Position numbers and translations under genes: made by a program. A DNA stretch of 64,000 bases, taken from assembly GCA_963831325.1 (NCBI GenBank), contig CAWHQA010000004.1, positions 128,069-192,068 of the forward strand, given 5' to 3'. Each line of letters opens with the position of its first letter. Position 1 is the stretch's first letter. Under the pieces are notes generated by a model. That model saw nothing but the letters and a program-made list of their open reading frames with translations. It did not search any database and had not been told where the DNA came from. Positions 33,716 through 56,499 of the stretch are shown piece after piece. This stretch comes from an uncultured Actinomycetes bacterium. GTDB taxonomy: Bacteria; Actinomycetota; UBA4738; HRBIN12.

Positions 33716-35440
33716 CTATTCAGGGGTTGTCCACGGTGCCGGGCCCTCCAGTCGATCCCGCGCTGTGTCCTGAGCCGCCGCGTGGGCCTCGCCGGTGAGT
33801 GCGGCGAGGAACTCGTCGCGGTGCAGCGAGAGCAGACGTGAGTCGGCGAGCGCCACCACGGTCGCCGTGCGGGGTACGTCGCGCAGCAGTGCGATCTCAC
33901 CGAACTCCTCGCCGGGACCCAATGTCGCGACGTGCGCTCCTGCCCGAGACACTTCCACCGAGCCGGCCGCGACCGCGTAGTAGCGATCGCCCGCATCGCC
34001 CTCGCGGATGATCTCAGCGCCGGCTTCCACATCAACCGGCACAGCGTTGCGGGCCACCCGTTCCAACGCGGGGCCTGGCAACACCGAGAAGATCCGTGTG
34101 CGTCGCAGCACCGCCAACTCCTGCGCGGGCACTCGGACCCCGACGTCGAGGTCCGTGAGGCGGCGCCCAACGACGAGCGTGATCACTGGCAGCACCAGAC
34201 CACCCACCACCAGGGTCCAGCGAGGTCCGAACGAGACGACGACGATCGAAGCTGCGAGCGCTCCGAGCCCCTCGCCGCCCATATACATGGACTCCAACAC
34301 ACCGAGCACCCTCGTGAGCTTGGCGTCGGGGATCAGCCGTTGCAGCATCGTGATGCCGGCGACGTTGCTGAGCGCCATGCCCGCCGACGAGAACGCGAAC
34401 AGTGGACCGGCAGCGACCGGCACGATCGCGGTCGCCGCGACCGGAACACCGGTGACGAGCAATCCCGATCGGAACGAGCCCGCCAGGCGCCGGCGACCGG
34501 TGACCACGACGGCGACCGCCGCACCGACTATCGATCCGACGCCGATCGAGACGTTCAGCAATCCGACACCGGCGTCGCCGGTGCCGAGCACCTCGAACGC
34601 CAGCACCACGATCAGCACGTCGATCACGCCCAGCACGAAGGTCCACATGCCGAGCAGTCCGACGAGCAGCCGAGCGCGGGGGTCGTGCCAGGCGGTCCGG
34701 ACTCCCTCGGATACCTCTCGGCGCAGGGAAGGCCGCATGGTGGCCGCGCCTCCACCAGGGGCCCGGCCTTCGACGGCTGGGATCGTGGCAACCAGCCCAG
34801 TGCCGAGCACCAGCAGGACCGTCAGCGCAGCGTTGACTGATCCAGGCCCCGACAGCGAACCGCTGACCGCGAATGCGATCGTGGCGAGCAGGGGCCCGAG
34901 GAACGCGCAGGCGCTCTCGATCATGCCGGTGGCCGCGTATGCCGCCGTCAGGTCTCTCGGCGTCGGAGCGAGCGCCGGCAGCACCGCGTTGTGCGTCGGT
35001 CTGACCAGGGTGAGCAGCGCCGCGGAGACGGTTGCCGCTGCGTAGACCACGATCGGAGATAGTCCCGCAAGCATGGAGAACGCGGTCGTGCCGGTGCCGA
35101 GCGCCAGGCCGCCGTGGGCGAGGACCAGTACGCGTTCCCGCCGGTATCGGTCGCCGAGAACCGACCCGATCGGGGCGACGACGGCCGCGAGCACGAGGGT
35201 GAGCGTCGACACGAGGCCGACCCTCGCGGTGCCTCCTTCCGCGAAGGCGTACACGATGAGCGCGATGTATGCCGCCCATTCGGTCGTGCTGAACGCGATC
35301 AGCGCCAGCAGGGCCTTCGCGAGCGAGGGGGTTCGGAACGACCGGCTGAATCCGCGGACCGAGGCGCGCAGCTCAGCCACCACGGCCCCCAAGGTGTCGG
35401 TGAGGACCTCGTCCGCAGATGCACCGCCGTCGGTGTCCAC
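33716..35440 (-). CDS. MFS transporter fused to a C-terminal cyclic-nucleotide-binding domain
   Basis: This is the lower part of ORF 33716..36046. About 12 TM helices begin at ..LAKALLALIAFSTTEWAAYIALIVYAF... The cNMP-binding fold is IFSVLPGPALERVARNAVPVDVEAGAEIIREGDAGDRYYAVAAGSVEV..GEEFGEIALLRDVPRTATV. The start is set at GTG 35440, because the remaining ~200 upstream codons are antisense to the Crp gene. Confidence 0.8.
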   Translation of the reverse strand: MDTDGGASADEVLTDTLGAVVAELRASVRGFSRSFRTPSLAKALLALIAFSTTEWAAYIALIVYAFAEGGTARVGLVSTLTLVLAAVVAPIGSVLGDRYRRERVLVLAHGGLALGTGTTAFSMLAGLSPIVVYAAATVSAALLTLVRPTHNAVLPALAPTPRDLTAAYAATGMIESACAFLGPLLATIAFAVSGSLSGPGSVNAALTVLLVLGTGLVATIPAVEGRAPGGGAATMRPSLRREVSEGVRTAWHDPRARLLVGLLGMWTFVLGVIDVLIVVLAFEVLGTGDAGVGLLNVSIGVGSIVGAAVAVVVTGRRRLAGSFRSGLLVTGVPVAATAIVPVAAGPLFAFSSAGMALSNVAGITMLQRLIPDAKLTRVLGVLESMYMGGEGLGALAASIVVVSFGPRWTLVVGGLVLPVITLVVGRRLTDLDVGVRVPAQELAVLRRTRIFSVLPGPALERVARNAVPVDVEAGAEIIREGDAGDRYYAVAAGSVEVSRAGAHVATLGPGEEFGEIALLRDVPRTATVVALADSRLLSLHRDEFLAALTGEAHAAAQDTARDRLEGPAPWTTPE

Positions 35441-35504
35441 CGGGGCACCGTACTCCCGCGGCACGGGCTTGCGGCAAGGCCATCGTTCCTGCGAGGCTCC
35501 GTCT

Positions 35505-36197
35505 GTGACGGCGAACGACAACGCCCCGCTCCTCGCGAACTCGGCCCTTTTCGTCGACCTCGCACCGAAGGCGCTCGACTTCCTGGCGGATCGGGCCACA
35601 CGCCTGGACTTCGAGCGCGGGCGGCACATCTTCCGCCAGGGTGACGAGGGCGACACCCTGTTCGTCATCGCAGAAGGCCTCGTGAAGGTCTGGGTGTCGT
35701 CGGGGGAGGGAGGCGAGATGGTGCTCGCCACCCTGCGATCCCCCGATGCCTTCGGGGAGCTCTCGGCGGTCGACGGCCGGCCTCGTTCGGCCTCGGCGAC
35801 GGCGCTCGAGCCGACCACGTTGGTGGCCCTCGACCGGGCCACGCTGCTCGACGCGGTGCACCGCCACCCCGGGGTCGCCGACGGCATGTTGCGAGCGCTC
35901 GGCGGGCTCGCGCGCCGCATCACCGAGCAGACGTCCGACCTGGTCTTCCTCGACCTGGCTGGGCGACTCGCCAAGACGCTCGCCATGCTCGCCGACCGCG
36001 ACGGTCGCGCCGAAGGCGATGCGGTCGTGCTCGCGCTTCCGTTCACACAGACCGAGCTCGCGGAGATGGTCGGGGGGTCGCGCCAGAGCGTGAACCAGAT
36101 CCTGAAGTCCTTCGAGACGCGGGGCTTCCTCGAGGTGCGCGGACACGAGGTCGCGATCCCCGATCTCGACGCGCTCCGCCGACGCGGCGCCCGCTGA
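35505..36197 (+). CDS. Crp/Fnr family transcriptional regulator (cNMP-binding + HTH)
   Basis: GTG 35505 is in frame within ORF 35073..36197. The cNMP-binding part is ..LFVDLAPKALDFLADRATRLDFERGRHIFRQGDEGDTLFVIAEGLVKV..FGELSAVDGRPRSASA. The HTH is QTELAEMVGGSRQSVNQILKSF. It is divergent from the MFS-cNMP gene, with a 64-bp gap. Confidence 0.88.
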   Translation: MTANDNAPLLANSALFVDLAPKALDFLADRATRLDFERGRHIFRQGDEGDTLFVIAEGLVKVWVSSGEGGEMVLATLRSPDAFGELSAVDGRPRSASATALEPTTLVALDRATLLDAVHRHPGVADGMLRALGGLARRITEQTSDLVFLDLAGRLAKTLAMLADRDGRAEGDAVVLALPFTQTELAEMVGGSRQSVNQILKSFETRGFLEVRGHEVAIPDLDALRRRGAR

Positions 36198-39250: not shown

Positions 39251-39463
39251 ATGGTACGAACGACGGTGATGGCAGACCCGATCGTGATGGAGCGACTCAA
39301 GGCCCTCGCGGCCGAGCGCGGCGTCTCGGTCAGCGCGCTCATCCGCGAAGCGCTCGAGCAGAAGGCCGGTGAGTATCGACCGAAGCCCCGGCTCGGCATC
39401 GCCCACTCCGGTGGCGGCGACATCGCCTCGAGCGACGCGACGAGAGCCGTGCCGCCTCGCTGA
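39251..39463 (+). CDS. vapB: Ribbon-helix-helix antitoxin of a VapBC pair
   Basis: 70-aa ORF reading ..MADPIVMERLKALAAERGVSVSALIREALEQKAGEYRPKP... Its stop overlaps the vapC start (TGATG). Confidence 0.8.
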   Translation: MVRTTVMADPIVMERLKALAAERGVSVSALIREALEQKAGEYRPKPRLGIAHSGGGDIASSDATRAVPPR

Positions 39464-39876
39464 TGCTGATCCTCGACACCAGCGTGCTTCTCGCAGCCCT
39501 CGATGCCGACGAACGCACCCATAGAGTCTGCAGTTCATTGATCGACGGCAGCAACGAACCGCTCGTGATCCCCTCGCCGGTACTCCCCGAACTCGGCTAT
39601 TGGGCCGAGCAGCGGCTCGGCGTCGACACGATGATCACCGTGCTCGGCGACGTTCGCCGGGGCGCATACGTGGTCGAGGAGCCCACATTCGACGACTTCG
39701 CTCGGGTTCAGACGCTGCTCGATCGATATCGCGACCTGCGCGTGGGGTTCGTCGATGCGGCGGTGCTGGCACTCGTCGAGCGGCTCGAGGAGCCCAAGCT
39801 AGCGACCCTCGATCACCGCCACTTCGGGGCGATGCGTCCGCGCCACGTCGACGCGCTCGAGCTGCTGCCGGGCTGA
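39463..39876 (+). CDS. vapC: PIN-domain ribonuclease toxin
   Basis: 137-aa ORF. MLILDTSVLLAALDADE carries the first PIN acidic residue. ..PSPVLPELGYW.. and ..GFVDAAVLALVERL...LATLDHRHF carry the conserved D/E quartet pattern. Confidence 0.85.
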   Translation: MLILDTSVLLAALDADERTHRVCSSLIDGSNEPLVIPSPVLPELGYWAEQRLGVDTMITVLGDVRRGAYVVEEPTFDDFARVQTLLDRYRDLRVGFVDAAVLALVERLEEPKLATLDHRHFGAMRPRHVDALELLPG

Positions 39877-40705: not shown

Positions 40706-43700
40706 GTGCCTGCGCGCAACCCTTCGAGCCGGCACATCGCCGGCGCAGGGCACATCGAGGCGCTACTAGCGGCGTATCGTTCGGCCGTGCAGGTGTGCAG
40801 GAAGTGCGGCGAACGCAATCCCGACCGGGCTCGGTTCTGCATGAGGTGCGGCGCCTCGCTCGACGACACCCAGCGCCCGCTCGAATCGCGGAAGGTAGTC
40901 ACGGTGCTCTTCGCCGACCTCCGTGGATCTACCGCGATCGGGGAGCGCCTCGACCCCGAAGCCGTTCGCCGGGTTCTCACGAGGTTCTACGACGCCGCGC
41001 GCGAGGTGATCGAGCGCCACGGCGGCACAGTGGAGAAGTTCATCGGTGACGCGGTCATGGCTGTCTTCGGAGTGCCGCTCGTGCACGAAGACGATGCCCT
41101 ACGAGGGGTGCGCGCGGCGGCCGAGCTGCAACAAGTCCTCGGGCACATGAACGACGAGCTGCTCCGCGCCAAGTACGGGGTCGGCCTCGAGCTGCGCATC
41201 GGCGTGAACACCGGCGAGGTCGTGGCCGGCGACCCTTCCACGGGCAGCTCGTTCGTGGCCGGCGATGCCGTGAACGTCGGCGCCCGACTCGAGCAGGCGG
41301 CGCCTCCCGGCGAGGTGCTCATCGGTTCGGAGACACAGCAGGCGGTCGGATGGGCCGTCGAGGTGGAAGCCATCGAACCGCTCGACCTGAAGGGGAAGTC
41401 GGAGAAGGTGCCCGCGTATCGGCTCGTGGCGCTGCGCTCACCGGACCAGGTGCCCGAACTGCTTCCCTTGATCGGCCGCGATCGGGAGCGACGCCGGCTC
41501 GATGACGCCCTCGATGCCGCCCTGAGCGCATCGCGCGCCGTGACCGTCACGTTGTCGGGTCCGCCGGGTATCGGCAAGACCCACCTCGCCGAAGACGCTC
41601 TCGAGCGGTGGCACCGAGAGCGCGGCGTTCGAGCCGTCGAGGTGCGATGCGTCGCCGAGGGGGAGGGCAACCCGCTCGGCCCGATCGTGGCGTTGATCCT
41701 CGGGCTCCTGAACGCTCCGGCGGGCGCTCCGGCCGACGATGTCGCCGCGGCGATCCGACTTCGACTGGACGAGCATGAGCGCGCGCCGGTGGTCGCGACG
41801 GTGGTGGCGGGCCTCGTGCGCGGCGGCGGGGCCCGCCCCTCGATGGTCGACGTGGCCTGGGCGGCGGCCGAGCTCGTGTCATCGGTTGCCCGCGAGGCCC
41901 CGGTGGCATTGCTCATCGACGACGCTCACCGGAGCGACGATGATCTCGATGCTGTGCTGCACGAGGTGACGACGCGCCCGGATCGGCCCGTCGTGCTGGT
42001 ACGAACGGTGTTGCCCGAGTTCTCGTCGGGCACGACCGAAACGATCACGCTGGATCCTCTGGGGGACGCCGCATCGCGCGAGCTGCTCCTCTCGGTCATG
42101 GGCGACACGCCGGCCAACGACCGCATCGTCGCTCAGGCCGACGGCAATCCCCTGTTCCTGATCGAGACGGCGCGCATGCTCCGCGAAAGCGGCCCGCAGG
42201 ACGCCTCGGAAGCCCTTCGGGTGCCGACGACGATCAGGGGGTTGCTCGCAGCCCGCATCGAACGACTTCCTGCCGCCGAGGCGCGGCTGCTCGAGACGGC
42301 TTCGGCTATCGGTCGCGTCTTCCCGCTGGAGGGCGCCGCATCGATCGCGCGGATCGGGCTCGATCAGGTGAGCGCCGCAGCGACGTCGCTCGAGGGTCGG
42401 CACCTGTTGACCGAGGTCGGAAGCGTGCACGGCGCCAACACCTCGTTCTCCCATGCCCTCGTGCGTGAGGTCGCCTACCAGAGCATGACGAAAGAACGGC
42501 GCGCCGATCTGCACGAACGTTACGCTGCGTGGCTACAAGCCCGAGGACGGACCCTTCCGTCGGTCGTCGCCCATCATCTAGAGCAGGCATATGTGCTCCG
42601 CAGCAGCTTGGGCGTGCCGGGTCCTGACGAATGGCGGCTCGCAGCCCGGGCAGCGACGGCATTCGCGGCGAGCGGCCTGCACGCCATCGCGGGGGAGTCG
42701 CGTGCAACAGCGATCGCAGCCCTCAGCCGAGCGCGCGCGCTCGTAACCGCGATCCCTGCCGGGGCCGGAGCGTCCGAGGTCGCGCTCGAAGCGCGATCCT
42801 CGTCGGGTCGCTTGGCGGTCGATCTCGGGGACTGGGAGGCCGCGATCGAGCTGCTCGATCTCGAGTCGCTCGGTCCGACCGAGGGGCACGGCGACAGCTA
42901 TCGCCTGGGTCTTGCTCTTACGCAGGCACATCGTGGCCGGGCCGATCACGCCGAGCTGCGGCGTGGCCGCGCGCTGCTCGAGAGCCTGCTCGACACGGCC
43001 CCAACGGCAGACGTGGCCGCCTCGCTCGCCGGCAGTTGGAAGGGCATCGACGACGAGCGCGCCCTCGATCTGTATCGATCTGCGCTCGATCTGGACCCGG
43101 GGGATCCGTATGCGCTTGGAAACGTCGTGGAGTTCGAAGCTGTGAGCAGCGGATCGCTCGACGTGGTCCGCGGCATGGGCACTTTCCTCGATGCCGCAGC
43201 TCGTCGATGTCGCAGCCAGATCGAGCGCGGTGAGAACCAGCCTTGGGCAAGCTTCGATCTGGCCAAGTTCGCCCTGCTCTCAGGCGCACACGACGACGCC
43301 TTCGAAGCGGCCTGTCTGGCCGTCGCGCGCAGTTCCGCCCGATTCATGGTCGAGACATCGCTTCGGTCGCTCGAGCGGTTCTCGGCGATCGACGGCTCGA
43401 TCGCCGGTCTGCAGCGGGTGGTCTCGCTCTACCGCCTCGCGCTTGCCGCCGGCTTCGGTGCTGATGAGGTGGTCCCGTCGTTGCCCTCGACTCCTGACGC
43501 TCGATCGTTCACCCGTCCGGTCGTCATCATCGCCGGAGGATCCTCGCTCGAGTCTGAGGCCCAAGTGCTCCGGTTCGGTCCGCTGGTGCGCGAAGCCATG
43601 CGCGGGGGAGGGGGAACGCTGGTGTCCGGCGCGACCCGTCAAGGCGTGAGTCTGATCGCAGGCGACATCGCGGAAGATGATGCGTTCCGGGCCATCGGAT

Positions 43701-44047
43701 ATCTGCCGGCCTCGATACCGGCTAACGTCGAGGTCGATCACGAGCGGTACGCGGAGCTGCGACGCACGACCGGCGAGGACTTCAGCGTCGCGGAACCGTT
43801 GCAGTACTGGAGCGACGTTGTTGCGAGCGGCATCGACCCTGCCGACGTCCGGGTGCTCGCGATCGGCGGCGGCGGCATCTCGGCCGCGGAGTATCGCATG
43901 GCGTTGGCGCTCGGGGCTCGGGTCGGCGCGATCAGCGGAAGCGGCGGGGCGGCGTCGGAGCTGTTGCGCGACCCGTGGTGGGCGGCGACGACGAGGCTGG
44001 TCGAGCTTGCGCCCGAGGTCGAAGCGATGCGCGAATTCCTCGGGTAG
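40706..44047 (+). CDS. Zn-ribbon + class III nucleotide cyclase + P-loop STAND ATPase + TPR/helical (MAP3K-TRAF-binding/DUF4071-like) region + C-terminal SLOG/LOG-like Rossmann domain
   Basis: Intact 1113-aa ORF; an alternative start at GTG 40787 gives MQVCRKCG.
- Zn ribbon: CRKCGERNPDRARFCMRCG.
- Cyclase: VVTVLFADLRGSTAIGE..KFIGDAVMAVFG..LRIGVNTGE..GDAVNVGARL..GEVLIGS.
- Walker A GPPGIGKT (nt 41558-41581) and Walker B ALLIDDAHRSDDD.
- Helical region with ..LAGSWKGIDDERALDLYRSALDLDPGDPYALGNV.. and ..NQPWASFDLAKFALLSG...
- Last 177 aa (nt 43514-44044): RPVVIIAGGSS...TLVSGATRQGVSLIAGDIA...VLAIGGGGISAAEYRMALALGARVGAISGSGGAA. These are the two Gly-rich motifs of LOG/SLOG-type nucleotide-binding folds. 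Confidence 0.85.
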   Translation: MPARNPSSRHIAGAGHIEALLAAYRSAVQVCRKCGERNPDRARFCMRCGASLDDTQRPLESRKVVTVLFADLRGSTAIGERLDPEAVRRVLTRFYDAAREVIERHGGTVEKFIGDAVMAVFGVPLVHEDDALRGVRAAAELQQVLGHMNDELLRAKYGVGLELRIGVNTGEVVAGDPSTGSSFVAGDAVNVGARLEQAAPPGEVLIGSETQQAVGWAVEVEAIEPLDLKGKSEKVPAYRLVALRSPDQVPELLPLIGRDRERRRLDDALDAALSASRAVTVTLSGPPGIGKTHLAEDALERWHRERGVRAVEVRCVAEGEGNPLGPIVALILGLLNAPAGAPADDVAAAIRLRLDEHERAPVVATVVAGLVRGGGARPSMVDVAWAAAELVSSVAREAPVALLIDDAHRSDDDLDAVLHEVTTRPDRPVVLVRTVLPEFSSGTTETITLDPLGDAASRELLLSVMGDTPANDRIVAQADGNPLFLIETARMLRESGPQDASEALRVPTTIRGLLAARIERLPAAEARLLETASAIGRVFPLEGAASIARIGLDQVSAAATSLEGRHLLTEVGSVHGANTSFSHALVREVAYQSMTKERRADLHERYAAWLQARGRTLPSVVAHHLEQAYVLRSSLGVPGPDEWRLAARAATAFAASGLHAIAGESRATAIAALSRARALVTAIPAGAGASEVALEARSSSGRLAVDLGDWEAAIELLDLESLGPTEGHGDSYRLGLALTQAHRGRADHAELRRGRALLESLLDTAPTADVAASLAGSWKGIDDERALDLYRSALDLDPGDPYALGNVVEFEAVSSGSLDVVRGMGTFLDAAARRCRSQIERGENQPWASFDLAKFALLSGAHDDAFEAACLAVARSSARFMVETSLRSLERFSAIDGSIAGLQRVVSLYRLALAAGFGADEVVPSLPSTPDARSFTRPVVIIAGGSSLESEAQVLRFGPLVREAMRGGGGTLVSGATRQGVSLIAGDIAEDDAFRAIGYLPASIPANVEVDHERYAELRRTTGEDFSVAEPLQYWSDVVASGIDPADVRVLAIGGGGISAAEYRMALALGARVGAISGSGGAASELLRDPWWAATTRLVELAPEVEAMREFLG

Positions 44048-44065
44048 GGAGAGGAGGCTGCGTTG

Positions 44066-45379
44066 ATGAGCAAGGTCGCCCGGGATGTCTTCGTCAGCTA
44101 CCGACGTGATGACGCGGGCGGGTATGCGGGACGCCTCGGCGACGCCCTCGCGGATCGGTTCGGAGCCGACCACGTCTTCCTCGATGTGGTCAGCATCGCG
44201 CCCGGTGCCGATTTCGTGGCCGCGATCCGGGAGGCGATCTCGGCGTGCGATGCATTCGTGCCCGTCATCGGACCCGGCTGGGCGGATTCCCGCGATGGTC
44301 GGGGGAACCGCAGCTCGACGACCCGGATGACGTGGTGCGTCTCGAGATCGAGGCGGCACTGGAACTGGACGTCGCGGTCATCCCTGTGCTGGTGGGCGAC
44401 GCGTCGATGCCGACGGCCGACGGGCTCCCACCGGGACTGCTCGGCCTCGCGAAGCGGAACGCCGTGCCGATCAGCAACGCTCGCTGGTCCTCCGACGTGT
44501 CCCGTCTCATCGCGGCGCTCGTGGGCGGGACCAGGACGCAGGACCTGGTGTGGGTTCCGCCACGAGATCTGCAGTACGCCCACCGTGAGGATGCGAGCAT
44601 CGCCTTCGAGGCTTTCGGCCGCGGACCCGTCCTGGTGTATATGCCGAGCTGGGCATCGAACATCGAGTCGAACCACCGGCACGCGCCGTACCACCGCTGG
44701 CTCTCGGATCTTTCGCAGATGTGCCGTCTGATCGTCGTGGATAGTCGCGGACGTGGATGTTCCGACGGGGTCAGCGAGAGTCTCGAGGTTCACGTGGAGG
44801 ATCTCATGGCCGTGCTCGATGCCTCCGGCTCTCCGCGTGCAACCTTGTTCGGCGTCCAGGAGACGAGGTTGATCGCCCTGCTGGCTGCGGCGAGACATCC
44901 CAACGCATCACCCGTCTGGTCCTCTTCGACGCCAGCGCCTCGTACGCTCCGACCGACGACGACGCGTCGTCATGGGTCGACGAAGACTGGGAAACGGCCG
45001 TCCGCACCGAGGACATGTGGGGGACCACGGCCTACACTCATTCCTGGGCCCTGGCTCACACGCCCTCGCTGGTGGGAGATGTGGGCGCTCGAATGGCTGA
45101 CGACCCTCTTCCGCCTCACGTACGGTCCTCAGAGTCTGCACGTGCAGACCCGGATGTTCATGCGGGCCGACGTTCGCGACGCATTGCCTTCGGTCGTGGC
45201 TCCGACGCTCGTGCTTCGGCGCGAGCACGACGCCATCTTCAGCGAGCAAGAGTGCCGGTACGTCGTGGACCGGCTGTCGAAAGCGCCTAGAGGAGCTCTC
45301 AGGTCGAGATGCGATGCCGTGGGCGGGTGACACTCGACCGGTCACCGAGGCGATCGCACGGTTCCTCAAGACCGGCTAG
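44066..45379 (+). CDS. TIR domain + alpha/beta-hydrolase-fold domain fusion (frame-broken)
   Basis: SD GAGGAGG precedes ATG 44066, 18 bp after the upstream stop. The TIR part is DVFVSYRRDDAGGYAGRLGDALADRFGADHVFLDVVSIAPGADFVAAIREAISACDAFVPVIGPGW....DDPDDVVRLEIEAALELDVAVIPVLVGDASMP. The second part, ..LQYAHREDASIAFEAFGRGPVLVYMPSW..LIVVDSRGRGCSDG..ATLFGVQETRLIALLAAARHP.., is collinear with the hydrolase-like module of the 7535 cyclase. The end is ..VTEAIARFLKTG*. The pieces are ORFs 44063.., 44245.., 44757.. and a fourth frame. Confidence 0.8.
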
Positions 45380-45404: not shown

Positions 45405-48400
45405 TCAGTCCGCGATGGCGAACGTGGCGAGCACGCGATCCACGGCCGGCATGAATCTCTCGAAGCTACGACGGTCGGCTGAGAACGCGTTCACGACGAT
45501 GGTGGAGCCGCCCGTTTCCAGGACGATCCATCGGTCGACTCCCCGGGGCCGAGAGCGTTGACAAAGTCGTCAGTCGTGAGAGGTCCGGTCTCGTGTCGTG
45601 CCGACATCGCCAAAGCGTGACGCATCCTCCACAGGTCGGCCATGGGTTTTCGCGCGGCACGGAGACCACCTCGGTGTCGACGGAAACGCCATCGATGTCC
45701 CCGACGCTCATGGGTGTGGGGGAGGTGGTCTCCAGGTCGGGGTGTCTTGCGAGCCATCTCGGCAGATCTTGTGGAAAGGGCAACAGATTCCTTCGCTCGT
45801 CCCAATCCTTGAATGGGTCGAGCCGCGCCCTGGATTGAGGGAGATGAAGCTCAATCCGCTGAAGGGATCGTCGATCGGCTGAAGCTGCACGAGGTACCAA
45901 ACCCAACATCCTTCTCGTCCGGAGCCAGCTCTGCCGTGACGAACCAATCGTCCTCCAGGTCGAAGGAGAACTCCGGGTACGCGTGCTCGAGTGTGTATGT
46001 GCCGGGCGTTACGACACCGTTCGAGACGCGCTCTCCATCGGCATCGACAGCACGACCGGACCGCTCTTCGAAGCGCCTACGAGTCTCCGCTGCGACTCGA
46101 GCCTCAGGGCCCAAGGAATCGGCCAGCCGTCGCCGGGCGAGCGAGATGAGTTCACCGATGCTGCCACAAGCATCGCAACGATCGATCCTGACGGACGTCT
46201 CGTTGGTGCTCACGACCCTGGAGCCGTCGCCGGTGAAGAATGCAATGCGCCCGGTCCACCGCCTCCCCCGAACGAGGCGAGCAAGTCACCGGAGTTCGGG
46301 TCCCACACCCGGGTGGTACCGCCGTCGTCGGTCGTCGCGACCCTCTGACCGTCAGCATCCCACCACACGCTGTTGACCACTCCGTCATGGCCTGGGAGCC
46401 GCCGCAGCAACTCACCTGACTCCGGATCCCACACGCGTGCGACTCCGTCATCCGAGCGTGTGGCCACACGCTCGCCATCAGGCGAGAAGACCATACCCAG
46501 AACCTCACCACCATCCTCGAGGGAGGCGATTCGACGGCCTGCCCGGGCGTGCCACACGATCGCGGTCGAGGCGACGGTTCCCGCGAACCGGCCGTCTGTA
46601 CTGAGGGCGAGGCCGACTCCACCCGATCGGAAGAGGCGGTCGTCGTGCCACAGTTCTTCGCCCGAGCCCGCGTCCCACATGCGGACCGTTCCATCACCCA
46701 CACCCGATGTGAAGACGAGGCCATCCCCACTGATATGGGCTTCCCAGACGCCTCCGAACTCATTCGGCTCGCCATGCCTGTACATGCCGAGTTGCTTCCC
46801 TGTGCATGCATCCCGCAGGCGAGCCTGCCATCGTCGCTCCACGTCAGGGCGCGATCAGAGCTCGCGAAGAAGTCGGCTGCCATGTACGTCTCGTCGTGGC
46901 CACGGAGCTCCGTCACCAACCTTCCGGAAGCCACGTCCCACACACGGCCCGATTCCGTCCAGTCCCTCCAGAGACGAGCAACCGTCCGTCGGTGCTGAGG
47001 GAGGCGGTGGTCAGCGGTGCGCCGGCATCGAGCCGCATGGTCTCGCGTCCGGTATCGGAATCGACAGGTATGCCGCACCATCCCACGTCGATACCGCGAT
47101 CCGCGGACCCGAGGGGTCGGCGGACGCGAACGAGATCTCGCCCTTGACGACCGTCCGTCCGGTCGACACATCCCAGATCCGAGCCGTCCCGTCACGGCCC
47201 CCGGTCACCACGCTGGCGCCATCGGGAGAGAAGCGGGCATCCAGGACCTCGCCCGCATGACCTCGAAGGGTTGCGATCGACGTGCCGTCGTCCGCGTCCC
47301 AGACCCTCGCCGTTCCATCCGTGGCTCGAGGTGACGACAAGGGCTCCGTCGTTGCTGAACGAAGCGGTACCGATTTCACCCTGGTGTCCTCGGAGGACGG
47401 CGGGCTGCCGTCCAGCCCGGGCGTCCCACACCCTCGCCGTCTCATCCTCCCCGGCGGTGACGACGGAGCGACCGTCGGGGGAGAACGTAGCCTCGACGAT
47501 AGGCGTGGCTCCCGGGTCGAGATCTGCCAGGAGGCGTCCCGATGCTGGCTGCCCAGATCTTCGCAGTCCCATCCTCGCTGGCGGTCGCTATCCGCGATCC
47601 GTCGGGGGAGTAAGAGGCGCTGTACAGGCCGTCGACGTGTCCTTCCAACACGCTGATCGTCCGACCGCTCTTCGCATCCCACAAGCGAGCTGTGTCGTCA
47701 TCACTTGCCGTCACGATGGTCGTGCCTCTAGGATCGAAGTCCACGTCGTAGATCGGCCGGGAATGTCCACGGAACACGCCCACCAACCGGCAGGTCGAAG
47801 GATCCCATGTTCTCGCGATGCCGTCTTCCCCGGCGGTGACGACGCGAGCGCCGGACGCATCGAACGTCGCATCGTGCACCGCCCCACCGCCGTGACGCAA
47901 CGTGCAGACTTCGTCGCCACTGTCTGCATCCCACACGATAGCGGTGCCATCGAAGCTCGCGGTCACGGCCAGCGAGCCGTCGGGGGAGTAGTCGACGGAT
48001 TCGATGATGTCGTCATGTCCAGACAGCACGACCGGTGCTCGCGAGCTCGCCGTGTCCCACAAGCGGGCGGTTCCGTCTGTACTCCCGGTAAGGATCCTCC
48101 GCCGACTGGGCTGTATCGAACGGAGACGATCGCAGCCTCGTGTCCGCGCAGGGTTCGCCGAACCCTCGAGGTCTCCAACGATCGCCGGAGCGCATCGACT
48201 GCCTCGGCGGTCTGGGCACTCGCCATGGCTTCGGTCGCTAGCACGAGCGACCGTTCGGGGTCGACGGCGAGCTGACCCATGGCCGAGGCGGCGAGTTCCC
48301 TCGATCGTGAGTGGGCCGCTTGCTCTCGCGCCTCGCCCCGTTGCACGAGCGCGAACGCGCTGAGCGCGAGCGAGACGACGAGTGCCGCGGCCACCGCGGC

Positions 48401-49036
48401 GATGGCGCCGCGCTGACGCCGGGTGGCGGCCGACCTGGATGCCTGCACGTACCGTGCCTGCGCGGGGGTGGCCCTCGGCTCCGACCCCGATGCCACGACC
48501 GCCTCGGCTTCGGCGATCTCCGCGCCCCGCAGCAACAGGGCCTTCGTGTCGTCCTTCCGTTCCCACTCGCCGGCCTGCACCCCGAGCTTCGTGTGTGCTC
48601 GTACGTGCTCGAGGTCGGTCCGAAGTGCCTCCACCGCTCGGTCCACCGCGCCGCCGAGGGCTCCGTCGGTGGCATCGATCCAGTTGAGCGCCGCGAGCGG
48701 CCCCGGCACCGATGCGGCATCGGTGGATCGCACCATGACCGGCACGATCCGCTTACCCGCCCCCCGGGCGAGCTCGAGCTCCTCCGCACAGACCTTCGAG
48801 TTCGCGAGGGAGGGGGAGACGACGACCAGGTAACCGTCGGAGGACTCGATCGCCGATCCGATCTCGGCCATCCACTCGGCCGAGGGTGGGATGTCCTCGA
48901 GGTCCACCCACGCCTTCAGCCCTCGTGCGTCGAGGCCCGCCACGATTGCTACCACGGCCTCCCGGTCGGCGCGGGAGTAGGAGACGAACACGTCGTGGGG
49001 CTGGGTGGACTCGCTCGACTCGGCAGCGCTCAACAC
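45405..49036 (-). CDS. TIR + single TM helix + WD40 beta-propeller array + C-terminal domain, paralog 1 (heavily frame-broken)
   Basis: GTG 49036 overlaps the stop of paralog 2 (GTGTTGA). The TIR part is HDVFVSYSRADREAVVAIVAGLDARGLKAWVDLEDIPPSAEWM..SKVCAEELELA... The linker is HVRAHTKLGVQAGEWERKDDTKALLLRG. The TM helix is AIAAVAAALVVSLALSAFALV. WD40 blades (..TGSTDGTARLWD.., ..TASFDGTAIVWD.., ..TAGEDGIARTWD.., etc.) are spread over ORFs 47963.., 47442.., 47192.., 47011.., 46210... After ..IDRCDACGSIGELISLARRRL comes a ~250-aa C-terminal domain ending ..AVDRVLATFAIAD* (stop at 45405). Confidence 0.8.
48330..49036 (-). repeat. Conserved ~0.7-kb 5' module (TIR + linker + TM), copy in paralog 1
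   Basis: Long runs are identical or near-identical in DNA and protein to 51154..51882 and 54548..55275. Similarity stops right after the TM helix (..ALVQRG). Confidence 0.8.
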
Positions 49037-51882
49037 GTGGCTCGATACTGCGCGAAGGGGATGAGGTCTTTCCACTCGGCCTCGGTGAGGTTCCTGCCGG
49101 CCGCCGAGCACAAGTGCTCGGCGAGGAGTTCGACGTCGTCGGACCACGCGACCGACGGGAGCACCAAGATGCTTCCGTCGTCGCTGGCCGCCACCAAGCT
49201 CGTTCCCTCGGGATCGAACGCGAGTGAGTTCACCCAATCGCGTTGCTCTGGCAGTCGGTCCCCGATGACCTCGCCGGTGCTCGCCTCGAACAGCGCGACT
49301 TCGCCCGCGACCGTGCCTGCGGCGAGCACGTTTCCATCGGGGCTGAACGCCACGCTCTGCACACCGTCGCCCAGTGTGAGCTCGAATTCCGGCTCGCGGC
49401 TCTCGACGCTCAGCACGACCACGTCGCCACGGAAGTTGCCGATCGCCAGTCGTTCGCCGCTCGGATCGAAGGCCATGGCGTACACCGCACTCCGCTGCTT
49501 CAGCACGGGTTCGCCCACGACACTTCCATCGGAGGGGTCGCGGAACACCACCGTGCCGTTGAGGCTGCTCGTGGCCAGGATCGAGCCATCGGGGCTGAAG
49601 GCGAGCGCGTAGATGAATCCCTTCTGACCAGGCACCAGCTCGCCGATCGGTTCGCCGCTCTCGGCGTTCCAGAGCTGCACATCGCCTTCGAGGCTGCCGG
49701 TCGCGACGGTCGAGCCGTCGGGGCTTATCGCCACGCCCGTGAGGAACGGCCCAGGCGCCTGAGTGGGCTCGAGGATCTCGAGCGCCAGCGAGTTCCATCG
49801 GCGCAGATCGCTTTGGAATGCGGCTGGGTCGAGCGCGGTACCGACCAATGTCTCGCCGTCGGGGGAGTAGGCCACGCCGTACGCGCCCTGTTCGTCGAAC
49901 GTTGCGATCGCCTCGAGCGTCCCGGTATCCCAGACGGTCACCCTTCCGGTCGTGACACCACCCCCGTCGAGGTACTCGATGGGATAGGTCGAGGCGAAAC
50001 TCTCGCCGTCGGGGTGGAAGGTCACCACGTTGACCGGCCCGCCGCCGCCCGCGAGCCGGTGCTTCACATCCCACACCACGACGGTGCTGTCGGAGCTCCC
50101 TGAGATCACCGAGCCGCCGTCGGGCGTGAACGCTAGGCCGTTGACCCAATCGGTGTGAGCGCGCAGCGGCTGGCTCACCTGCTCCCCTGTGTCGACGTCC
50201 CAGAGGCGCACCGTGGTATCCGCGCTTCCCGACGCAAGCGTTCGCCCGTCAGGGGAGAACGCGACGTCGTACGCGGCGTCATCGTGGCCTTGCAACTGCC
50301 AGAGCCGTTCTCCTGTCCCCAGATCGAATACGAGGACCTCGCCCGTCGCGGCCTGAGAGCGACGCGCGAGCGTGGCGACGGCCACCGACCGTCCGTCGGG
50401 GCTGACGTCGAGTCCCCACGCTTCCTCGGCCGACAGCTCGAACGTCGAAACCTTCTGGCCGGTCTTCAGGTCCCACGACGACATCAGCCCGCCTTCGGTG
50501 CTCGCGATGATGTCGTCGTTGTTGCCCGCGAACGCGAGTCCCCATACGGGCTGACGACCCACGCGGATCGGTGCGCGCATGATCGGGGTTCCGGAACCAG
50601 CGTTCCACGCGTGCACCGTTCCCTCACTGGTGCCGCCGAGAACGATCCGTCCGTCGAGTGAGAACGCGACGGATGTCACGTCACCGTCGTCGACGGGAAG
50701 CGGTTCACCGATCGCCTCGCCGGTAGTCGGATCCCACAGGTCCACGCTCCCGTCAGTCCCACCGGAGGCCAGCGTGCCGTCGGCGGCAAACGCCATGGAG
50801 AACACCGAACGGTCGTCGGCATCGATAGATTCCCCGGTCGGTTTACCGCTCTCGGCGGACCAGATCGAGATCTGGCCGTCGTTGTCGCTCGCGGCGATGA
50901 TCGACCCATCAGGTGCAACCGCCGCCGAGTTCACGCCGTTCGGCCCTCGCAGCGTGTGCTCGATCCAGATCGAACGCTGCGCAGCGACGTGCAATGCATC
51001 GAGTGCCTCGGGCGTTGGCGCGGTGCGGTAGGCCTCGAGGGCGAGCAGCATGCCAACGTCGAGCCGATCGTCCATGCTCAGGAGCGCCTCGGAGGCGAGT
51101 GCCCGTGAGTTGGCGACCTGGGTCTGCGACTCCGCACGGTCACGTTGCTCGACCGCCTCGCCCCGCTGCACCAGCGCGAACGCGCTGAGCGCGAGCGAAA
51201 CGACGAGCGCCGCGGCCACCGCTCCGATCGCAGAGCGCTGTCGCCGGGTGGCGGCCGCCCTGGACGCCTGCACGTACCGTGCCTGGGCCGGGGTGGCCCT
51301 CGGCTCCGAACCTGAGGCCACGACCGCTTCGGCCTCGACGATCTCCCCGCCCCGCAGCAACAGGGCCTTCGTGTCGTCCTTTCGCTCCCACTCGGCGGCT
51401 CGCACCCCGAGCTTGGTGTGTGCACGAACGTGGTCCAGGTCGGTCCGTAGCGCCTCCACCGCTCGGTCCAACGCACCGTCGAGGGCTCCGTCGGTGGCAT
51501 CGATCCAGTTGAGCGCCGCGAGCGCCCCGGGCACTGAGCCCGGATCGGTGGGGCGCACCATGACCGGCACGATCCGCTTGCCGGCCCTCCGAGCGAGTTC
51601 GAGCTCTTCGCCACAGACCTCGGAGCTCACGAGGGACGGGGAGACCGCGACCAGATAGCCGTCAGAGGCCTCTATCGCGGCTCGGATCTCGGCCATCCAT
51701 TCCGCCGAGGGCGGGATGTCCTCCAGATCTACCCACGCCTTGAGGCTCTTTGCCTCGAGACCCGCCACCAGCGCCACCACTGCCTCCCGGTCTGTGCGGG
51801 AGTAGGAAACGAACACGTCATGGCCCTGGGCAGGCTCGCTCGATCTGGCCTGCGCGGGCACACGCGGCTCGGTTTCGGTCAC
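49030..51882 (-). CDS. TIR + single TM helix + ~14-blade WD40 array, paralog 2 (intact)
   Basis: Intact 950-aa ORF. SD GGGAGG precedes GTG 51882. The TIR domain is about aa 21-140 (HDVFVSYSRTDREAVVALVAGLEAKSLKAWVDLEDIPPSAEWMAEIRAAIEASDGYLVAVSPSLVSSEVCGEELELARRAGKRIVPVMV). The TM helix is aa 218-238 (AIGAVAAALVVSLALSAFALV), preceded by RRQR. About 14 blades follow, of the type ..SPDGxxLAxGSxDxTVxLWD... There is no P-loop between the TIR domain and the repeats. Confidence 0.9.
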   Translation of the reverse strand: MTETEPRVPAQARSSEPAQGHDVFVSYSRTDREAVVALVAGLEAKSLKAWVDLEDIPPSAEWMAEIRAAIEASDGYLVAVSPSLVSSEVCGEELELARRAGKRIVPVMVRPTDPGSVPGALAALNWIDATDGALDGALDRAVEALRTDLDHVRAHTKLGVRAAEWERKDDTKALLLRGGEIVEAEAVVASGSEPRATPAQARYVQASRAAATRRQRSAIGAVAAALVVSLALSAFALVQRGEAVEQRDRAESQTQVANSRALASEALLSMDDRLDVGMLLALEAYRTAPTPEALDALHVAAQRSIWIEHTLRGPNGVNSAAVAPDGSIIAASDNDGQISIWSAESGKPTGESIDADDRSVFSMAFAADGTLASGGTDGSVDLWDPTTGEAIGEPLPVDDGDVTSVAFSLDGRIVLGGTSEGTVHAWNAGSGTPIMRAPIRVGRQPVWGLAFAGNNDDIIASTEGGLMSSWDLKTGQKVSTFELSAEEAWGLDVSPDGRSVAVATLARRSQAATGEVLVFDLGTGERLWQLQGHDDAAYDVAFSPDGRTLASGSADTTVRLWDVDTGEQVSQPLRAHTDWVNGLAFTPDGGSVISGSSDSTVVVWDVKHRLAGGGGPVNVVTFHPDGESFASTYPIEYLDGGGVTTGRVTVWDTGTLEAIATFDEQGAYGVAYSPDGETLVGTALDPAAFQSDLRRWNSLALEILEPTQAPGPFLTGVAISPDGSTVATGSLEGDVQLWNAESGEPIGELVPGQKGFIYALAFSPDGSILATSSLNGTVVFRDPSDGSVVGEPVLKQRSAVYAMAFDPSGERLAIGNFRGDVVVLSVESREPEFELTLGDGVQSVAFSPDGNVLAAGTVAGEVALFEASTGEVIGDRLPEQRDWVNSLAFDPEGTSLVAASDDGSILVLPSVAWSDDVELLAEHLCSAAGRNLTEAEWKDLIPFAQYRATC
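51154..51882 (-). repeat. Conserved ~0.7-kb 5' module (TIR + linker + TM), copy in paralog 2
   Basis: See 48330..49036. The similarity to paralog 3 extends about 25 nt upstream of the start codon (CTAGGCTCC.GG.CGGGAGGTTCCTCGTG). Confidence 0.8.
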
Positions 51883-52017
51883 GAGGAACCTCCCGCCGGG
51901 AGCCTAGTTCATGACCTAGGTCTGGCGATAGCGTGCTTGAGGGGACTCAGGAAGTCTCGAAAGCGACAGGATCGGCGAGTCCAAGTCGGCATCCCCCCGG
52001 TATGCGACGACCCCGGA

Positions 52018-55000
52018 TCAGGGGGTCCAGCCCACACGCTCCCACTGGTGGGCGGCGAGCGCCTGGACCCAGCCCTCGTTCGAGAGCTCGTCCCCGCAGC
52101 CGGGCAGCTCGATCGACTCGGGGGCGACGAAACGGACGGCCGAGGGACCGTCTGGCACTAGCCGTCCGGAGAACGAGTACCCGACGCACTTCGGGGGACC
52201 CGCGCTCGTGTGATGAGCGTGACCCTTTCCCCCGATCGCTCGATCGAGCCGCTCCAGTCGTCCAGGTCGCCGTTCGACGACCGCACGTGATATCGCCAGG
52301 TGTCACCCTCGAAGTACCAGGTGTAGACGCCCGCAAGCCATCGATGGTCGTTCGGTCCGAACGGTGGGCTCGGGAAATCCTCACGCTCGAGCTCGACGCG
52401 GAAGGCGCCCTCGGGAACCGGTGACTCCGGAAGGGCCGACGGTTCGGACGAGGCCGGACTAGCACGCGTGTCGGGGCACCGATCGACGTGGAGGTACTGC
52501 CGGCACTCGACCTCCGTGAGGTCGCGCGAGAGCCTCGAACGGGCGAGGGCGACGAGCTCGTCAACTTCGAGGGTGAACACGCGGAGCGTGCCATCTTCGC
52601 TCGCCGTGGCGAGCTCGGATCCATCGGGACTGAAGGCGATGCCCCAGATCGGTGCCGTGTGTCCTCGGAGCGCCAGGAGCTCCTCGCCGGTCTCTGCGTC
52701 CCAGACGTAGGCGATCCCGTCACCGCCTCCGGTCGCGAGCTGCGAGCCGTCAGGGCTGAACGCCACCGACTGGACGAACCCGACTCCCCCCATGGAGGCG
52801 AGCTCTCGACCCGAGGCGCTCAGTACAGTTGCGCCGTCTCCGCCGGCCGTGGCGATCCTCGAGCCATCCGGGCTGAAGGTGACCGAGCTCGCGAGCCCTC
52901 CACCCGACTGCACACGCGTGAGCTCCTCTCCCGATGATGTATCCCACACATAGAGCGTGGCCAGGCCGCTCAGGCCCGCGAGCAGATCTCCGTGCGGCGC
53001 GAACGCCACATCCACCATGCTGTCTCGCGCGTTGCTTGGCTCGCCGAGCGTATGCATGGTCCGGCCAGTAGCTGCGTCGAACACGGCAGCGGTACCGAGC
53101 TGCCCGGCAACGGCCACCCGAGTACCATCCCCCGATAACGCCATGGCGTTCGGCCAGTTCTCGTCGTCGCCATGGGTCGGGAAATGACTCACCACCGACC
53201 CATCGTCCGTCTGCACGATCTGGACGTCATCCTTCGGCGTGAGGAACGCCATGGTGCTGCCCCCGGGACCGAACGTCCCGTTGCGGAACCCGTCTAGGTA
53301 GCCGCGGACGAGCTCTCCCGTTTCGATGTCCCACAACCAGCCGCGCCCATACCACTCCGTCGTGAGCAGCGAGTTCCCGTCTGGGTGATACGCGAGATCG
53401 TTGAGGCCGGCGGGCTCCTCGATGCCGAGACGCTCGGCCGTCCCCGCCCGTGAGACGTCCCAGACCCGGGCTGTCCCGTCGGTCCCGCCGGTGAGGAGCT
53501 GGGTCCCATCGGGGCTGAACGACACGAGCGCGATCAGCCCCCGGTGTCCCGGGAGTGCGAGCACCTCCTCGCCGGTCTCGGCGTCGAAGACGCGGGCCAC
53601 ACCATCGCTACCCCCTGTGGCGACCAGGTCGCCGTCTGAGCTCCAGTCGACACCGATCACGTTCCCGGGACTCAGGATCCGCACCTCGGGCACGCGATCG
53701 AACCCGCCCTCGATACGAAGGTCCCAAACATTCACGCCTCCTTCGTCCGAGGTCACGAGCCGGGTCCCATCGGGGCTGAACGACATCTCCTGTGGGCAGA
53801 CGGCATCCAGCGACAGCACCTCCCGACCGGTACGCGCGTCGAGGATCACGGTCCGGTCGCGCGCGTTGGCGATCCTGGTGCCGTCAGGGCTCATGAGGGG
53901 TGTCGTGCACATCCCCCAGGGCTGATCGACTCGGAGGGTCTCGGCGCCGCTGTCGACATCGACCACCCGCACGACGCCACCCACGACGTTCCCGTCGGGA
54001 CCCGTGGGCAGCTCCCCGATCACGACCCGTTCACCGTCGTGCGCGAAGCGAGCTCCGGCGAGGATCCCGTCTTCAGCCTGCGGGATCACGGCCTGCACAT
54101 CGCCGGTGGCGACGTCCCAGATGCGGACACCGTCCTGTTCCTCATCGGAGACGCTCACGATCTGGGAGGCGTCGGGGCTGAACGCCACGTAGTTGAGGTC
54201 CGAGGTGTGACCCGAGAGTCGCTGCACCTCCGCACCCGTCTGCGCGTCCCACAGGATGGCGTCGACCCCCTCCTTTCCGCCGGCCGTTCCGCCCGTGAGC
54301 AGGAGCCGCCCGTCGGGACTCCACGCCACGTTCCCGGTGGAGGGATCGACGATGGTCAGGAGCTCACGGTCGGCCTCCACCGCATCATGCAGCGCCTGTT
54401 CCGCCTCGGGGAGGACGGCCTCATCGTCCCGCGTCGCGTCCACCGCTGCCAGAGCCAGGAGGATGCTGAGCTGCGGATCTACCGAGAGGTTCGCGGTCGA
54501 GGCGGCCGCGAGCTCTCGAGCCGTCGCCACGCGCGTCTGGCGTTCGGCCCGACCACGCTGGACGAGTGCGATCGCGCTCAAAGCCAGCGAGACGACGAGC
54601 GCCGCAGCCACCGCCCCGATCGCAGCACGTTGACGCCGGGTGGCGGCCGAGCGCGACGCCTGCACGAACCGAGCCTGGGCAGGGGTCGCCCTCGGATCCG
54701 AACCCGAGGCCACGACCGCTTCGGCCTCGGCGATTTCCCCTCCCCGCAGCAACAGCGCCTTCGTCTCGTCCTTCCGTTCCCACTCGGTGGCCCGCACCCC
54801 GAGCTTCGTGTGTGCCCGGACGTGGTCGAGGTCGGTCCGAAGGGCCTCCACGACCTGGTCCACCCGGTGGTCGAGCGCGCCGTCGGTGGCATCGATCCAG
54901 TTGAGCGCCGCCAGGGTCGTGGGCACCGAGCCTGGATCGGTGGGGCGCACCATGACCGGCACGATCCGCTTACCGGCCTCGCGCGCGAGTTCGAGCTCTT

Positions 55001-55515: not shown

Positions 55516-55552
55516 TCGCTGCAATCCGGCATCAGCCGCGAATGGGGGAGCT

Positions 55553-56463: not shown

Positions 56464-56499
56464 GCCTGGCCACGATCGTCCTGCCGTCCTCGGCATTGG

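Follow-up and report, generated by a model that had tools for sequence, protein, structure and literature searches.

The stretch of DNA analysed here (64,000 nucleotides of contig CAWHQA010000004.1 from an uncultured Actinomycetes bacterium, hereafter the window) encodes a protein of 1113 amino acids (aa) in which a class III nucleotidyl cyclase and a STAND-type NTPase are followed by TPR helices and a C-terminal SLOG domain. TIR-domain genes lie beside this gene and beside nearly all genes of its SLOG-tailed homologs, and this SLOG–TIR association is real and specific. Based on modelling, the C-terminal domain is predicted to be a SLOG fold of the TRPM-like (LSDAT) subtype, not a ThsA-like one. 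We give about an even chance to a reading of the 1113-aa protein as an NLR-like signal converter, in which the TPR+SLOG region would be the sensor, the STAND NTPase the switch and the cyclase the output, fed by a nucleotide made by a TIR protein.

To count TIR neighbours we used a profile built from annotated neighbour genes, which was validated against Pfam TIR_2 and also picks up unrelated Thoeris TIRs. A TIR gene was found within 5 kb at 11/11 distinct SLOG-tailed cyclase loci (23 TIR domains in 98 kb of flanking sequence), against 0/79 cyclase-STAND loci without SLOG (325 kb of flank). When only loci flanked by 3 kb or more are counted, the first 11 SLOG-tailed loci give 11/11 against 0/43 (Fisher p = 1e-11). 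Four further SLOG-tailed contexts have a TIR gene within 8 kb in three cases, which brings the overall count to 14/15. A metagenome scan with the cyclase-STAND half of the protein yielded 80 loci, and the sole SLOG-tailed locus among these was also the sole one with a TIR gene. The specificity of the association, argued in the initial annotation of this DNA, is thus supported by neighbourhood conservation. It might be argued that the adjacency is a coincidence, since these Actinomycetota carry many TIR-WD40 genes, and such genes are indeed multi-copy in the window (four in 15 kb). Given the 11/11 against 0/79 loci (p about 1e-11), the outcome of the metagenome scan and the recurrence of the association in unrelated phyla for RelA-type carriers of the same module (see below), we consider a coincidence very improbable.

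The TIR partners are mostly TIR-TM-WD40 proteins (TM, transmembrane), and further include TIR-STAND-TPR, TIR–hydrolase and TIR proteins with other tails; their TIR domains retain the conserved catalytic Glu. The expectation that a TIR partner would be co-conserved consequently holds for the TIR domain, but not for the specific partner first named: the recurrent ones are TIR-TM-WD40 or TIR-STAND-TPR proteins, often encoded convergently or divergently. Two of the loci (L006 and L171) are operonic.

The 1113-aa protein and its parts are located in the window as follows.

40706-44047 (+): open reading frame of 1113 aa for a zinc ribbon–class III cyclase–STAND NTPase–TPR–SLOG protein, unbroken frame
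40796-40861 (+): N-terminal zinc ribbon, aa 31-52 (Pfam Zn_Ribbon_1, E 1.2e-7)
40886-41410 (+): class III nucleotidyl cyclase catalytic domain, aa 61-235 (Pfam Guanylate_cyc, E 4e-21)
41465-41998 (+): STAND-type P-loop NTPase (AAA_16), aa 254-431 (Pfam AAA_16, E 5e-16)
42782-43480 (+): TPR superhelix, the N-terminal half of a conserved TPR+SLOG module of ~420 aa (AlphaFold2 model, hhalign)
43481-44044 (+): SLOG domain (LSDAT/TRPM-like), predicted nucleotide sensor (AlphaFold2 model, Foldseek, Pfam LSDAT_prok)

An intact frame encoding a class III cyclase, a P-loop STAND NTPase and TPR helices had already been described, and the unbroken reading frame, the Pfam matches and the conserved catalytic residues agree with that description. 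About 40 full-length homologs were found, with identities of 37-87%. Because the four cysteines of the zinc ribbon (C31, C34, C45 and C48) are unchanged throughout the family alignment, the long start giving 1113 aa is taken to be the real one, rather than a 1068-aa call. The cyclase domain scores 75.8 bits against a cut-off of 21.9 bits and has 2w01 as its top sequence match in the PDB (E 2e-30). Its two metal-binding Asp residues (D71 and D115), substrate Lys (K111) and transition-state Asn and Arg (N190 and R194) are kept by all homologs whose sequence extends over them (39-41 of 41). The substrate Lys is adenylyl cyclase-like, but the partner position, the second one for specificity, is a conserved and non-canonical Phe183 that aligns with a Thr in CyaB (3r5g) and a Gly in 2w01. 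The AAA_16 match reaches 60 bits (cut-off 32.6 bits); the Walker A motif GxxGxGK[TS] at aa 285-292 is conserved apart from a change of Lys to Arg in 2/41 homologs, as is the Walker B motif hhhhDD (DD at aa 405-406) apart from a change of D405 to Glu in 3/41. Overall, judged from their sequence, the enzyme parts of the protein look functional.

A paralogous zinc ribbon–cyclase–STAND–TPR gene is present at 19484-22676 (+). It carries at least three frameshifts, and a Gly replaces the substrate-specifying Lys (AEGFIGD). No SLOG or TIR profile match was seen within ~19 kb of it, in line with the initial annotation.

The final ~190 aa of the 1113-aa protein contain the glycine-rich motifs IIAGGSS, VSGATRQGVSLIAGD, AIGGGGISAAEYRMAL and ISGSGGAA, from which a Rossmann-like SLOG fold had been proposed. 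The AlphaFold2 model of the domain (31-sequence alignment, pLDDT 94.3, pTM 0.91) has alternating beta-alpha elements and supports this proposal. Among PDB entries, Foldseek ranks the N-terminal MHR1/2 regions of TRPM2 (ADP-ribose complexes), TRPM4, TRPM8 and TRPM3 first (E about 6e-7), after which come the molybdenum cofactor carrier protein 2iz5 and then TM1055 (1rcu); the probability is 1.0 for TRPM MHR1/2, 2iz5 and 1rcu. The sequence profile of the domain also matches 1rcu, TRPM2 and LOG-type phosphoribohydrolases. For Pfam LSDAT_prok (PF18171, "SLOG in TRPM, prokaryote") the window domain stays under the gathering threshold (E 3.4e-4, 20.4 against 25.4 bits), whereas homologs in the same alignment exceed it (42.6 bits in L083, 32.1 in L011 and 32.5 in L033; L numbers denote loci). 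PF18171 is likewise recorded among the precomputed Pfam hits, some of them faint, of homologs P0011, P0017, P0023 and others. The parallel with ThsA-type Thoeris drawn in the initial annotation can therefore be kept for the SLOG identity, but not for the subtype, which is closest to the TRPM-like LSDAT. Ligands are known for both subtypes: MHR1/2 of TRPM2 binds ADP-ribose (PMC13143021, citing Huang 2018), and the SLOG of ThsA senses 3'cADPR, a cyclic ADP-ribose (bioRxiv 10.64898/2025.12.03.692087).

Conserved motifs of the SLOG domain are AGGS, SGGTxQGVS, IGYLP, RYxELRxT, EPLxYW, IGGGxIxxxEYRxALALGA and GSGG, and its polar residues include an invariant E148 and near-invariant D97, R100, R105 and R150 (A1 alignment numbering). 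These residues raise the alternative that the domain is a LOG-like enzyme (a nucleotide N-glycosidase or signal-processing hydrolase) that makes, alters or destroys a nucleotide signal, possibly the TIR product, with the cyclase regulated otherwise. The invariant Glu follows the GGG loop and recalls the PGGxGTxxE motif of LOG, the profile matches include LOG-type phosphoribohydrolases and TM1055, and SLOG clades span enzymes to sensors according to Aravind and colleagues (PMC9503650). Nonetheless, the nearest structural matches are the non-catalytic, ligand-binding domains of TRPM proteins, the spacing of the LOG motif is not exactly reproduced, and in a STAND protein the C-terminal 'sensor' end, where this domain is found, is the usual place of ligand-binding repeats. 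An enzymatic SLOG thus seems distinctly unlikely to us.

The helices before the SLOG domain had been called DUF4071-like. We found no support for this identity: DUF4071 (PF13281) gave no match in the 1113-aa protein in a Pfam search up to E 10, and the confident model of this half (AlphaFold2, pLDDT 94.5, 13 helices) matches generic TPR proteins only in Foldseek. Pfam TPR matches around aa 780-805 are weak and sub-threshold; TPR-S (PF20308) is matched at the same place in 9/10 family members at 14-22 bits, always under the 27.6-bit cut-off, with near full-length coverage in about half of them.

A genome scan with a SLOG profile (from a 9-sequence alignment) yielded 80 loci in more than ten phyla including archaea. 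The majority encode proteins of ~830-870 aa consisting of RelA_SpoT, TPR, LSDAT_prok SLOG and RyR domains (the family of loci L011-L087, for example L011 8522-11011, L012 8567-10630 and L033 8591-10609). Aligned with hhalign, the window family and this RelA-type family share 422 columns (window aa ~693-1113) at 44% identity (E 1e-116). Since the homology extends over both TPR and SLOG, the two travel as one unit, and this unit is, as far as the sequences tell, joined to at least two different predicted messenger-synthesising heads (cyclase plus STAND, and RelA/SpoT). Among 1.84 billion cluster representatives at 50% identity, the SLOG profile finds 670 proteins with E <= 1e-30 and 894 with E <= 1e-10.

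The tendency towards TIR neighbours extends to these relatives. In the other loci with the module (mostly RelA-type, some with a standalone SLOG) a TIR gene lies within 10 kb in 25/77, and directly downstream and co-directional in 8/77, where 0.41 would be expected (p = 7e-9). Phage proteins with the RyR domain were reported to bind or cleave 2'/3'cADPR (PMC13232231), and the TPR domain of the Thoeris effector ThsI may perceive cADPR (bioRxiv 10.64898/2025.12.03.692087).

Some further carriers of the SLOG module were seen. L035 7972-11430 has a NUDIX match at its N-terminus and L046 8536-12381 has TrkA_N and RyR matches, while L083, L084 and L088 encode short standalone SLOG proteins of 191-318 aa, with a TIR gene directly downstream in L083 and L088. 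The RelA domain of L011 matches the PADLOC candidate PDC-S33 (E 2e-20).

In the window itself no TIR domain was found by the profile in positions 1-44000. The TIR genes all lie downstream of the SLOG gene.

44066-45379 (+): TIR_2–alpha/beta-hydrolase (Abhydrolase_1) gene, disrupted by four deletions (Pfam, tblastn, ortholog alignment)
46210-49060 (-): TIR-WD40 paralog in several frames; TIR at 48620-48997 (E 4e-41), WD40 body over open reading frames 46210-46842, 47011-47682 and 47442-48566
49030-51882 (-): intact TIR-TM-WD40 protein of 950 aa; TIR profile E 2e-41, hydrophobic segment AIGAVAAALVVSLALSAFALV
52158-55275 (-): TIR-WD40 paralog with its TIR split over two frames; TIR matches 54837-55136 and 55075-55215 in different open reading frames
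56500-60150 (-): TIR-WD40 paralog in at least four open reading frames (56500-58089, 58086-58418, 58351-59016 and 58968-59972); TIR matches 59751-59948 and 59981-60133

The 1113-aa gene stops at 44045-44047, and the Shine-Dalgarno sequence GGAGAGGAGG at 44048-44057 precedes an ATG at 44066, so the next gene does start 18 nt downstream with its own ribosome-binding site, as was claimed. It had been read as a plain TIR protein with the conserved Glu. The N-terminal TIR_2 match was recovered, but in the frame from 44066 it is limited to residues 9-80 (E 1.6e-9); RLEIEAAL, which holds the Glu, sits in another frame, past a 1-bp deletion at about 44312/44313, and the TIR sequence that had been quoted was spliced across this frameshift. 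Nor is the protein plain, since the gene encodes TIR_2 plus Abhydrolase_1. Based on tblastn and DNA alignment with intact orthologs, four deletions of 1, 1, 2 and 2 bp are present at about 44312/3, 44903/4, 45081/2 and 45287/8. Intact TIR_2 + Abhydrolase_1 orthologs occupy the same position in L003 (5050-6372, 440 aa) and L004 (9315-10631, 438 aa), whereas the gene is missing from L001/L002; in the closest relative (87% identity) a convergent TIR-WD40 gene comes directly after the big gene. An intact two-gene operon with a TIR protein was rejected for the window on account of the four frame-breaking deletions and the missing gene in the closest relative. Frameshifted here and deleted there, the TIR–hydrolase gene appears dispensable as a partner of the SLOG-cyclase.

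The hydrolase half of this gene (window 44600-45379 (+); L003 5050-6372) is similar to the hydrolase at the N-terminus of LipJ, a mycobacterial lipase/adenylate cyclase (NCBIfam NF058673, E 2e-21); hydrolases of this type otherwise occur fused to class III cyclases.

The four TIR-TM-WD40 paralogs at 46210-60150 (-) are arranged in tandem, and three of them are broken. Near the SLOG gene, the window has just one TIR gene that is intact, the one at 49030-51882; its conserved Glu lies in SEVCGEELELA, and its orthologs are annotated as TIR_2 + WD40. It is hence the only intact candidate signal generator in the window.

Given these broken genes, it might be argued that the system is a decaying relic in this genome: the TIR–hydrolase, three of the four TIR-WD40 paralogs and the paralogous cyclase would be pseudogenes, and the cyclase–SLOG protein would work without TIR input or be on its way out. 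Four deletions, none in a long homopolymer, within 1.3 kb against none in the adjacent 3.3-kb gene exceed what a uniform error rate would predict; several paralogs are broken, and the closest relative has no TIR–hydrolase gene altogether. However, sdhA (succinate dehydrogenase flavoprotein, 1281-3021 (-)) is also frameshifted. It is divided over two open reading frames with a frameshift near 2461-2489, the pieces covering FAD_binding_2 profile positions 1-173 and 179-384, the second followed by Succ_DH_flav_C. Since this gene is essential, the contig may carry indel errors, which bears on every pseudogene call in the window. The names of related contigs are in long-read style as well, so assembly indels, especially in repeated paralogs, are a live alternative. 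Moreover, one TIR-TM-WD40 gene is intact and the cyclase–SLOG frame retains all catalytic residues. We assign only a low probability to the relic, and a call of the TIR–hydrolase gene as a proven pseudogene was not upheld in view of the frameshift in sdhA. A GC3 frame plot as a window-wide count of frameshifts was dropped, being noisy and strand-blind.

Candidate readers of the cyclase product, proteins with a domain binding cyclic nucleotide monophosphates (cNMP), are encoded upstream.

33716-35380 (-): MFS transporter with a C-terminal cNMP-binding domain, candidate reader (Pfam MFS_1 + cNMP_binding)
35433-36197 (+): Crp/FNR-type cNMP-binding transcription factor, candidate reader (Pfam cNMP_binding + HTH_Crp_2)

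The MFS–cNMP architecture also adjoins homologs in L005, L006, L007 and L008, Crp-like genes adjoin those in L005 and L169, and the pair recurs beside distant homologs. Within 5 kb, cNMP-binding genes occur at 5/11 SLOG-tailed cyclase loci against 4/43 controls (p = 0.012), and at 0/77 of the other loci with the SLOG module, mostly RelA-type. Further neighbours of the cyclase–SLOG gene in the window are an M1 peptidase, a DUF1028 protein and a PIN toxin, and no mobile-element genes were seen in this neighbourhood, which resembles a conserved signalling cluster of the chromosome. On the other hand, the TIR-WD40 paralogs, being tandem and variable, would suit a conflict system. PADLOC gave single-domain matches only, namely PycC (the cyclase, E 1e-19), a ThsB-like TIR and the cNMP-binding part of 'PycTIR'; the latter matches fall within the MFS and Crp proteins, on their cNMP-binding domains, and not on TIR proteins.

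Genes for cNMP signalling are unusually numerous in the window. A 993-aa protein at 10886-13867 (-) has a TLC (ATP/ADP transporter-like) region, HEAT repeats and, at its C-terminus, a cNMP-binding domain, and there are also a cyclase fragment at 7616-8011 and a cNMP-binding domain at 63091-63414. Genes for PIN-domain (VapC-like) toxins stand beside the cyclase–SLOG gene in the window (39463-39876 (+)), in L002 (7833-8246) and in L170 (244-672 and 11430-11843). A subtilase (Peptidase_S8) gene recurs near SLOG-tailed cyclases (L005 2891-3700, L169 6087-6716, window 60819-61622 (-)), as does a GAF-domain gene in the L005 and L169 neighbourhoods, which hints at a larger conserved gene set.

With an effector at the N-terminus, a switch in the middle and a sensor at the C-terminus, the 1113-aa protein has an NLR-like STAND anatomy. 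The active sites of class III cyclases arise only across a dimer. In the relay that we infer, ligand, signalling direction and activation mechanism included, a TIR neighbour (usually TIR-TM-WD40, sometimes TIR–hydrolase or TIR-STAND-TPR) would be triggered via its own sensor repeats, and its TIR domain would convert NAD+ into a nucleotide derived from ADP-ribose. This ligand would be bound by the TPR+SLOG module, upon which ATP-dependent oligomerisation of the STAND part could join the cyclase domains. The cNMP then produced would be read by nearby cNMP-binding proteins (the MFS–cNMP transporter, the Crp-type regulator and others). A reverse relay, with cNMP acting on the TIR proteins, is disfavoured because a cNMP-binding domain was found in none of the TIR proteins examined at these loci.

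Extended to the whole family, the same idea gives a two-tier relay: a NAD-derived nucleotide made by a TIR protein would act on TPR+SLOG (plus RyR in the sister proteins) and be converted into another messenger, cNMP via the STAND-gated cyclase or an alarmone-type product via RelA/SpoT, and the N-terminal domain of TRPM channels would have descended from a bacterial receptor of TIR signals. We regard this broader version as plausible, with somewhat less than an even chance of being right.

Alternatively, the TPR+SLOG module may sense an endogenous nucleotide or metabolite that is not made by TIR proteins (free ADP-ribose, ATP or NAD status), with the TIR genes being co-regulated parallel sensors or NADase effectors, for example via a Crp-type factor. 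The equivalent domain of TRPM4 occurs in ATP-bound entries and that of TRPM2 in ADP-ribose-bound ones, so nothing binds the fold to products of TIR proteins. An endogenous ligand would also fit the convergent or divergent orientation of many TIR neighbours, the lack of a TIR gene within 10 kb at about two thirds of the other module loci (mostly RelA-type) and the presence of Crp and cNMP-binding genes in the conserved neighbourhood. Against it, linkage to TIR genes is very strong for the cyclase subfamily but is not seen for the non-SLOG paralogs, and the RelA-type family has a TIR gene directly downstream and co-directional far above chance. In addition, the sister proteins add RyR, a fold recently shown to bind cADPR isomers made by TIR proteins (PMC13232231). 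We hold an endogenous ligand to be unlikely, though far from negligible.

A number of observations weigh against the signal converter fed by a TIR-made nucleotide. Each relay step is deduced from domains and gene context. The TIR–hydrolase gene adjacent to the SLOG gene is frameshifted in the window and deleted from the closest relative, the type of TIR partner differs from locus to locus, and many TIR neighbours are convergent or divergent and not co-transcribed (some are co-directional). One SLOG-tailed locus, L172, has no TIR gene in 8 kb upstream, with only 1 kb of downstream sequence present. Phylogenetically, the compared loci are not independent (L001, L003, L004 and the window are closely related to one another), and the control loci are mostly from other lineages and have shorter flanks. 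Regarding the SLOG domain, the window clade has SGAT where the family has SGGT, and the invariant Glu at a place recalling the LOG catalytic motif could have an enzymatic role. Finally, nothing seen in the window marks a defence island, and PADLOC matched no known defence system as a whole.

If true, the signal converter would be the first case in which an immune-type signal derived from TIR and NAD is converted to a classical second messenger (cNMP or alarmone) instead of acting on a direct killing effector, and it would tie Thoeris-like signalling to Crp-type transcriptional and transport responses. Its purpose may be anti-phage defence or another response. With roughly 700-900 clusters at 50% identity the TPR+SLOG family is compact and testable. 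Among bacterial domains, its SLOG is the nearest relative of the TRPM domain that binds ADP-ribose, and together with the RyR-bearing sisters it offers a route to ask what these domains sensed before their recruitment to eukaryotic ion channels. For the window some caution is needed, as in the present sequence the adjacent TIR gene is broken; the intact orthologs in L003/L004 or the operonic loci L006/L171 are better representatives for follow-up than this damaged copy.

When the system is compared with those already described, the STAND adenylyl cyclases of actinobacteria (Rv0386, Rv1358 and Rv2488c type) have the order cyclase–AAA–TPR–LuxR. They share with the 1113-aa protein a class III cyclase, an AAA_16-type STAND NTPase and helical repeats, in this order, and the paralog in the window is also of this kind. 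However, proteins of this type end in TPR alone or in a DNA-binding domain, and the 79 non-SLOG relatives that we recovered have no TIR neighbours, whereas the 1113-aa protein ends in TPR+SLOG. The RelA/SpoT–TPR–SLOG–RyR proteins share the whole TPR+SLOG module and the tendency to a TIR gene next door; they differ in their RelA/SpoT-type nucleotidyltransferase head, the extra C-terminal RyR, their spread over many bacterial and archaeal phyla and the lack of cNMP-binding neighbours. The likeness to TRPM channels resides in MHR1/2, the LSDAT SLOG that is the best structural match and that in TRPM2 binds ADP-ribose and gates the output (PMC13143021), but these proteins have a eukaryotic ion channel as output, lack any STAND, cyclase or TIR context, and show 12-21% identity among the TRPM matches listed.

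As in Pycsar, a cyclase (matching the PADLOC PycC profiles at domain level) is encoded near cNMP-binding proteins. Pycsar cyclases, in contrast, are not known to carry STAND, TPR or SLOG parts. The effectors of Pycsar fuse a cNMP-binding domain to a TIR or TM killer; such a fusion is absent here, where we find an MFS transporter, a Crp regulator and TIR proteins without a cNMP-binding domain.

The closest logic is that of Thoeris. Like type I (the TIR protein ThsB and the SIR2-SLOG protein ThsA), the system has a TIR gene with a catalytic Glu adjoining a protein whose SLOG is the presumed receptor of a TIR-made nucleotide, and like type III (several TIRs and a SLOG effector) it has multiple TIR genes per locus. 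The differences are nonetheless considerable. The SLOG of the window is TRPM-like LSDAT, not ThsA/YpsA-like, and follows a TPR array as the C-terminal end of a STAND ATPase; as output there is a class III cyclase, predicted to make a second messenger, rather than a SIR2 NADase or other killing domain, so the killing or growth-arresting effector of Thoeris is not found. The TIR partners have TM-WD40, alpha/beta-hydrolase or STAND-TPR extensions and are often not co-oriented, and the system is known from its genes, with single-domain PADLOC matches as the only link to defence systems. SLOG effectors in the 2025 systematic survey of Thoeris comprise SIR2-SLOG, type III SLOG, SLOG-patatin and SLOG+4TM only, and none of its configurations (text and supplements) has a cyclase, RelA, RyR or WD40. 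Our literature search found no paper describing cyclase–STAND–TPR–SLOG or RelA–TPR–SLOG–RyR proteins with TIR, with an earlier mention possible in the NAR 2015 and J Bacteriol 2020 papers of the Aravind group. Overall, we infer a variant of Thoeris-type signalling, in which the Thoeris logic of a TIR protein and a SLOG-bearing partner would be combined with another SLOG clade and a cyclase output.

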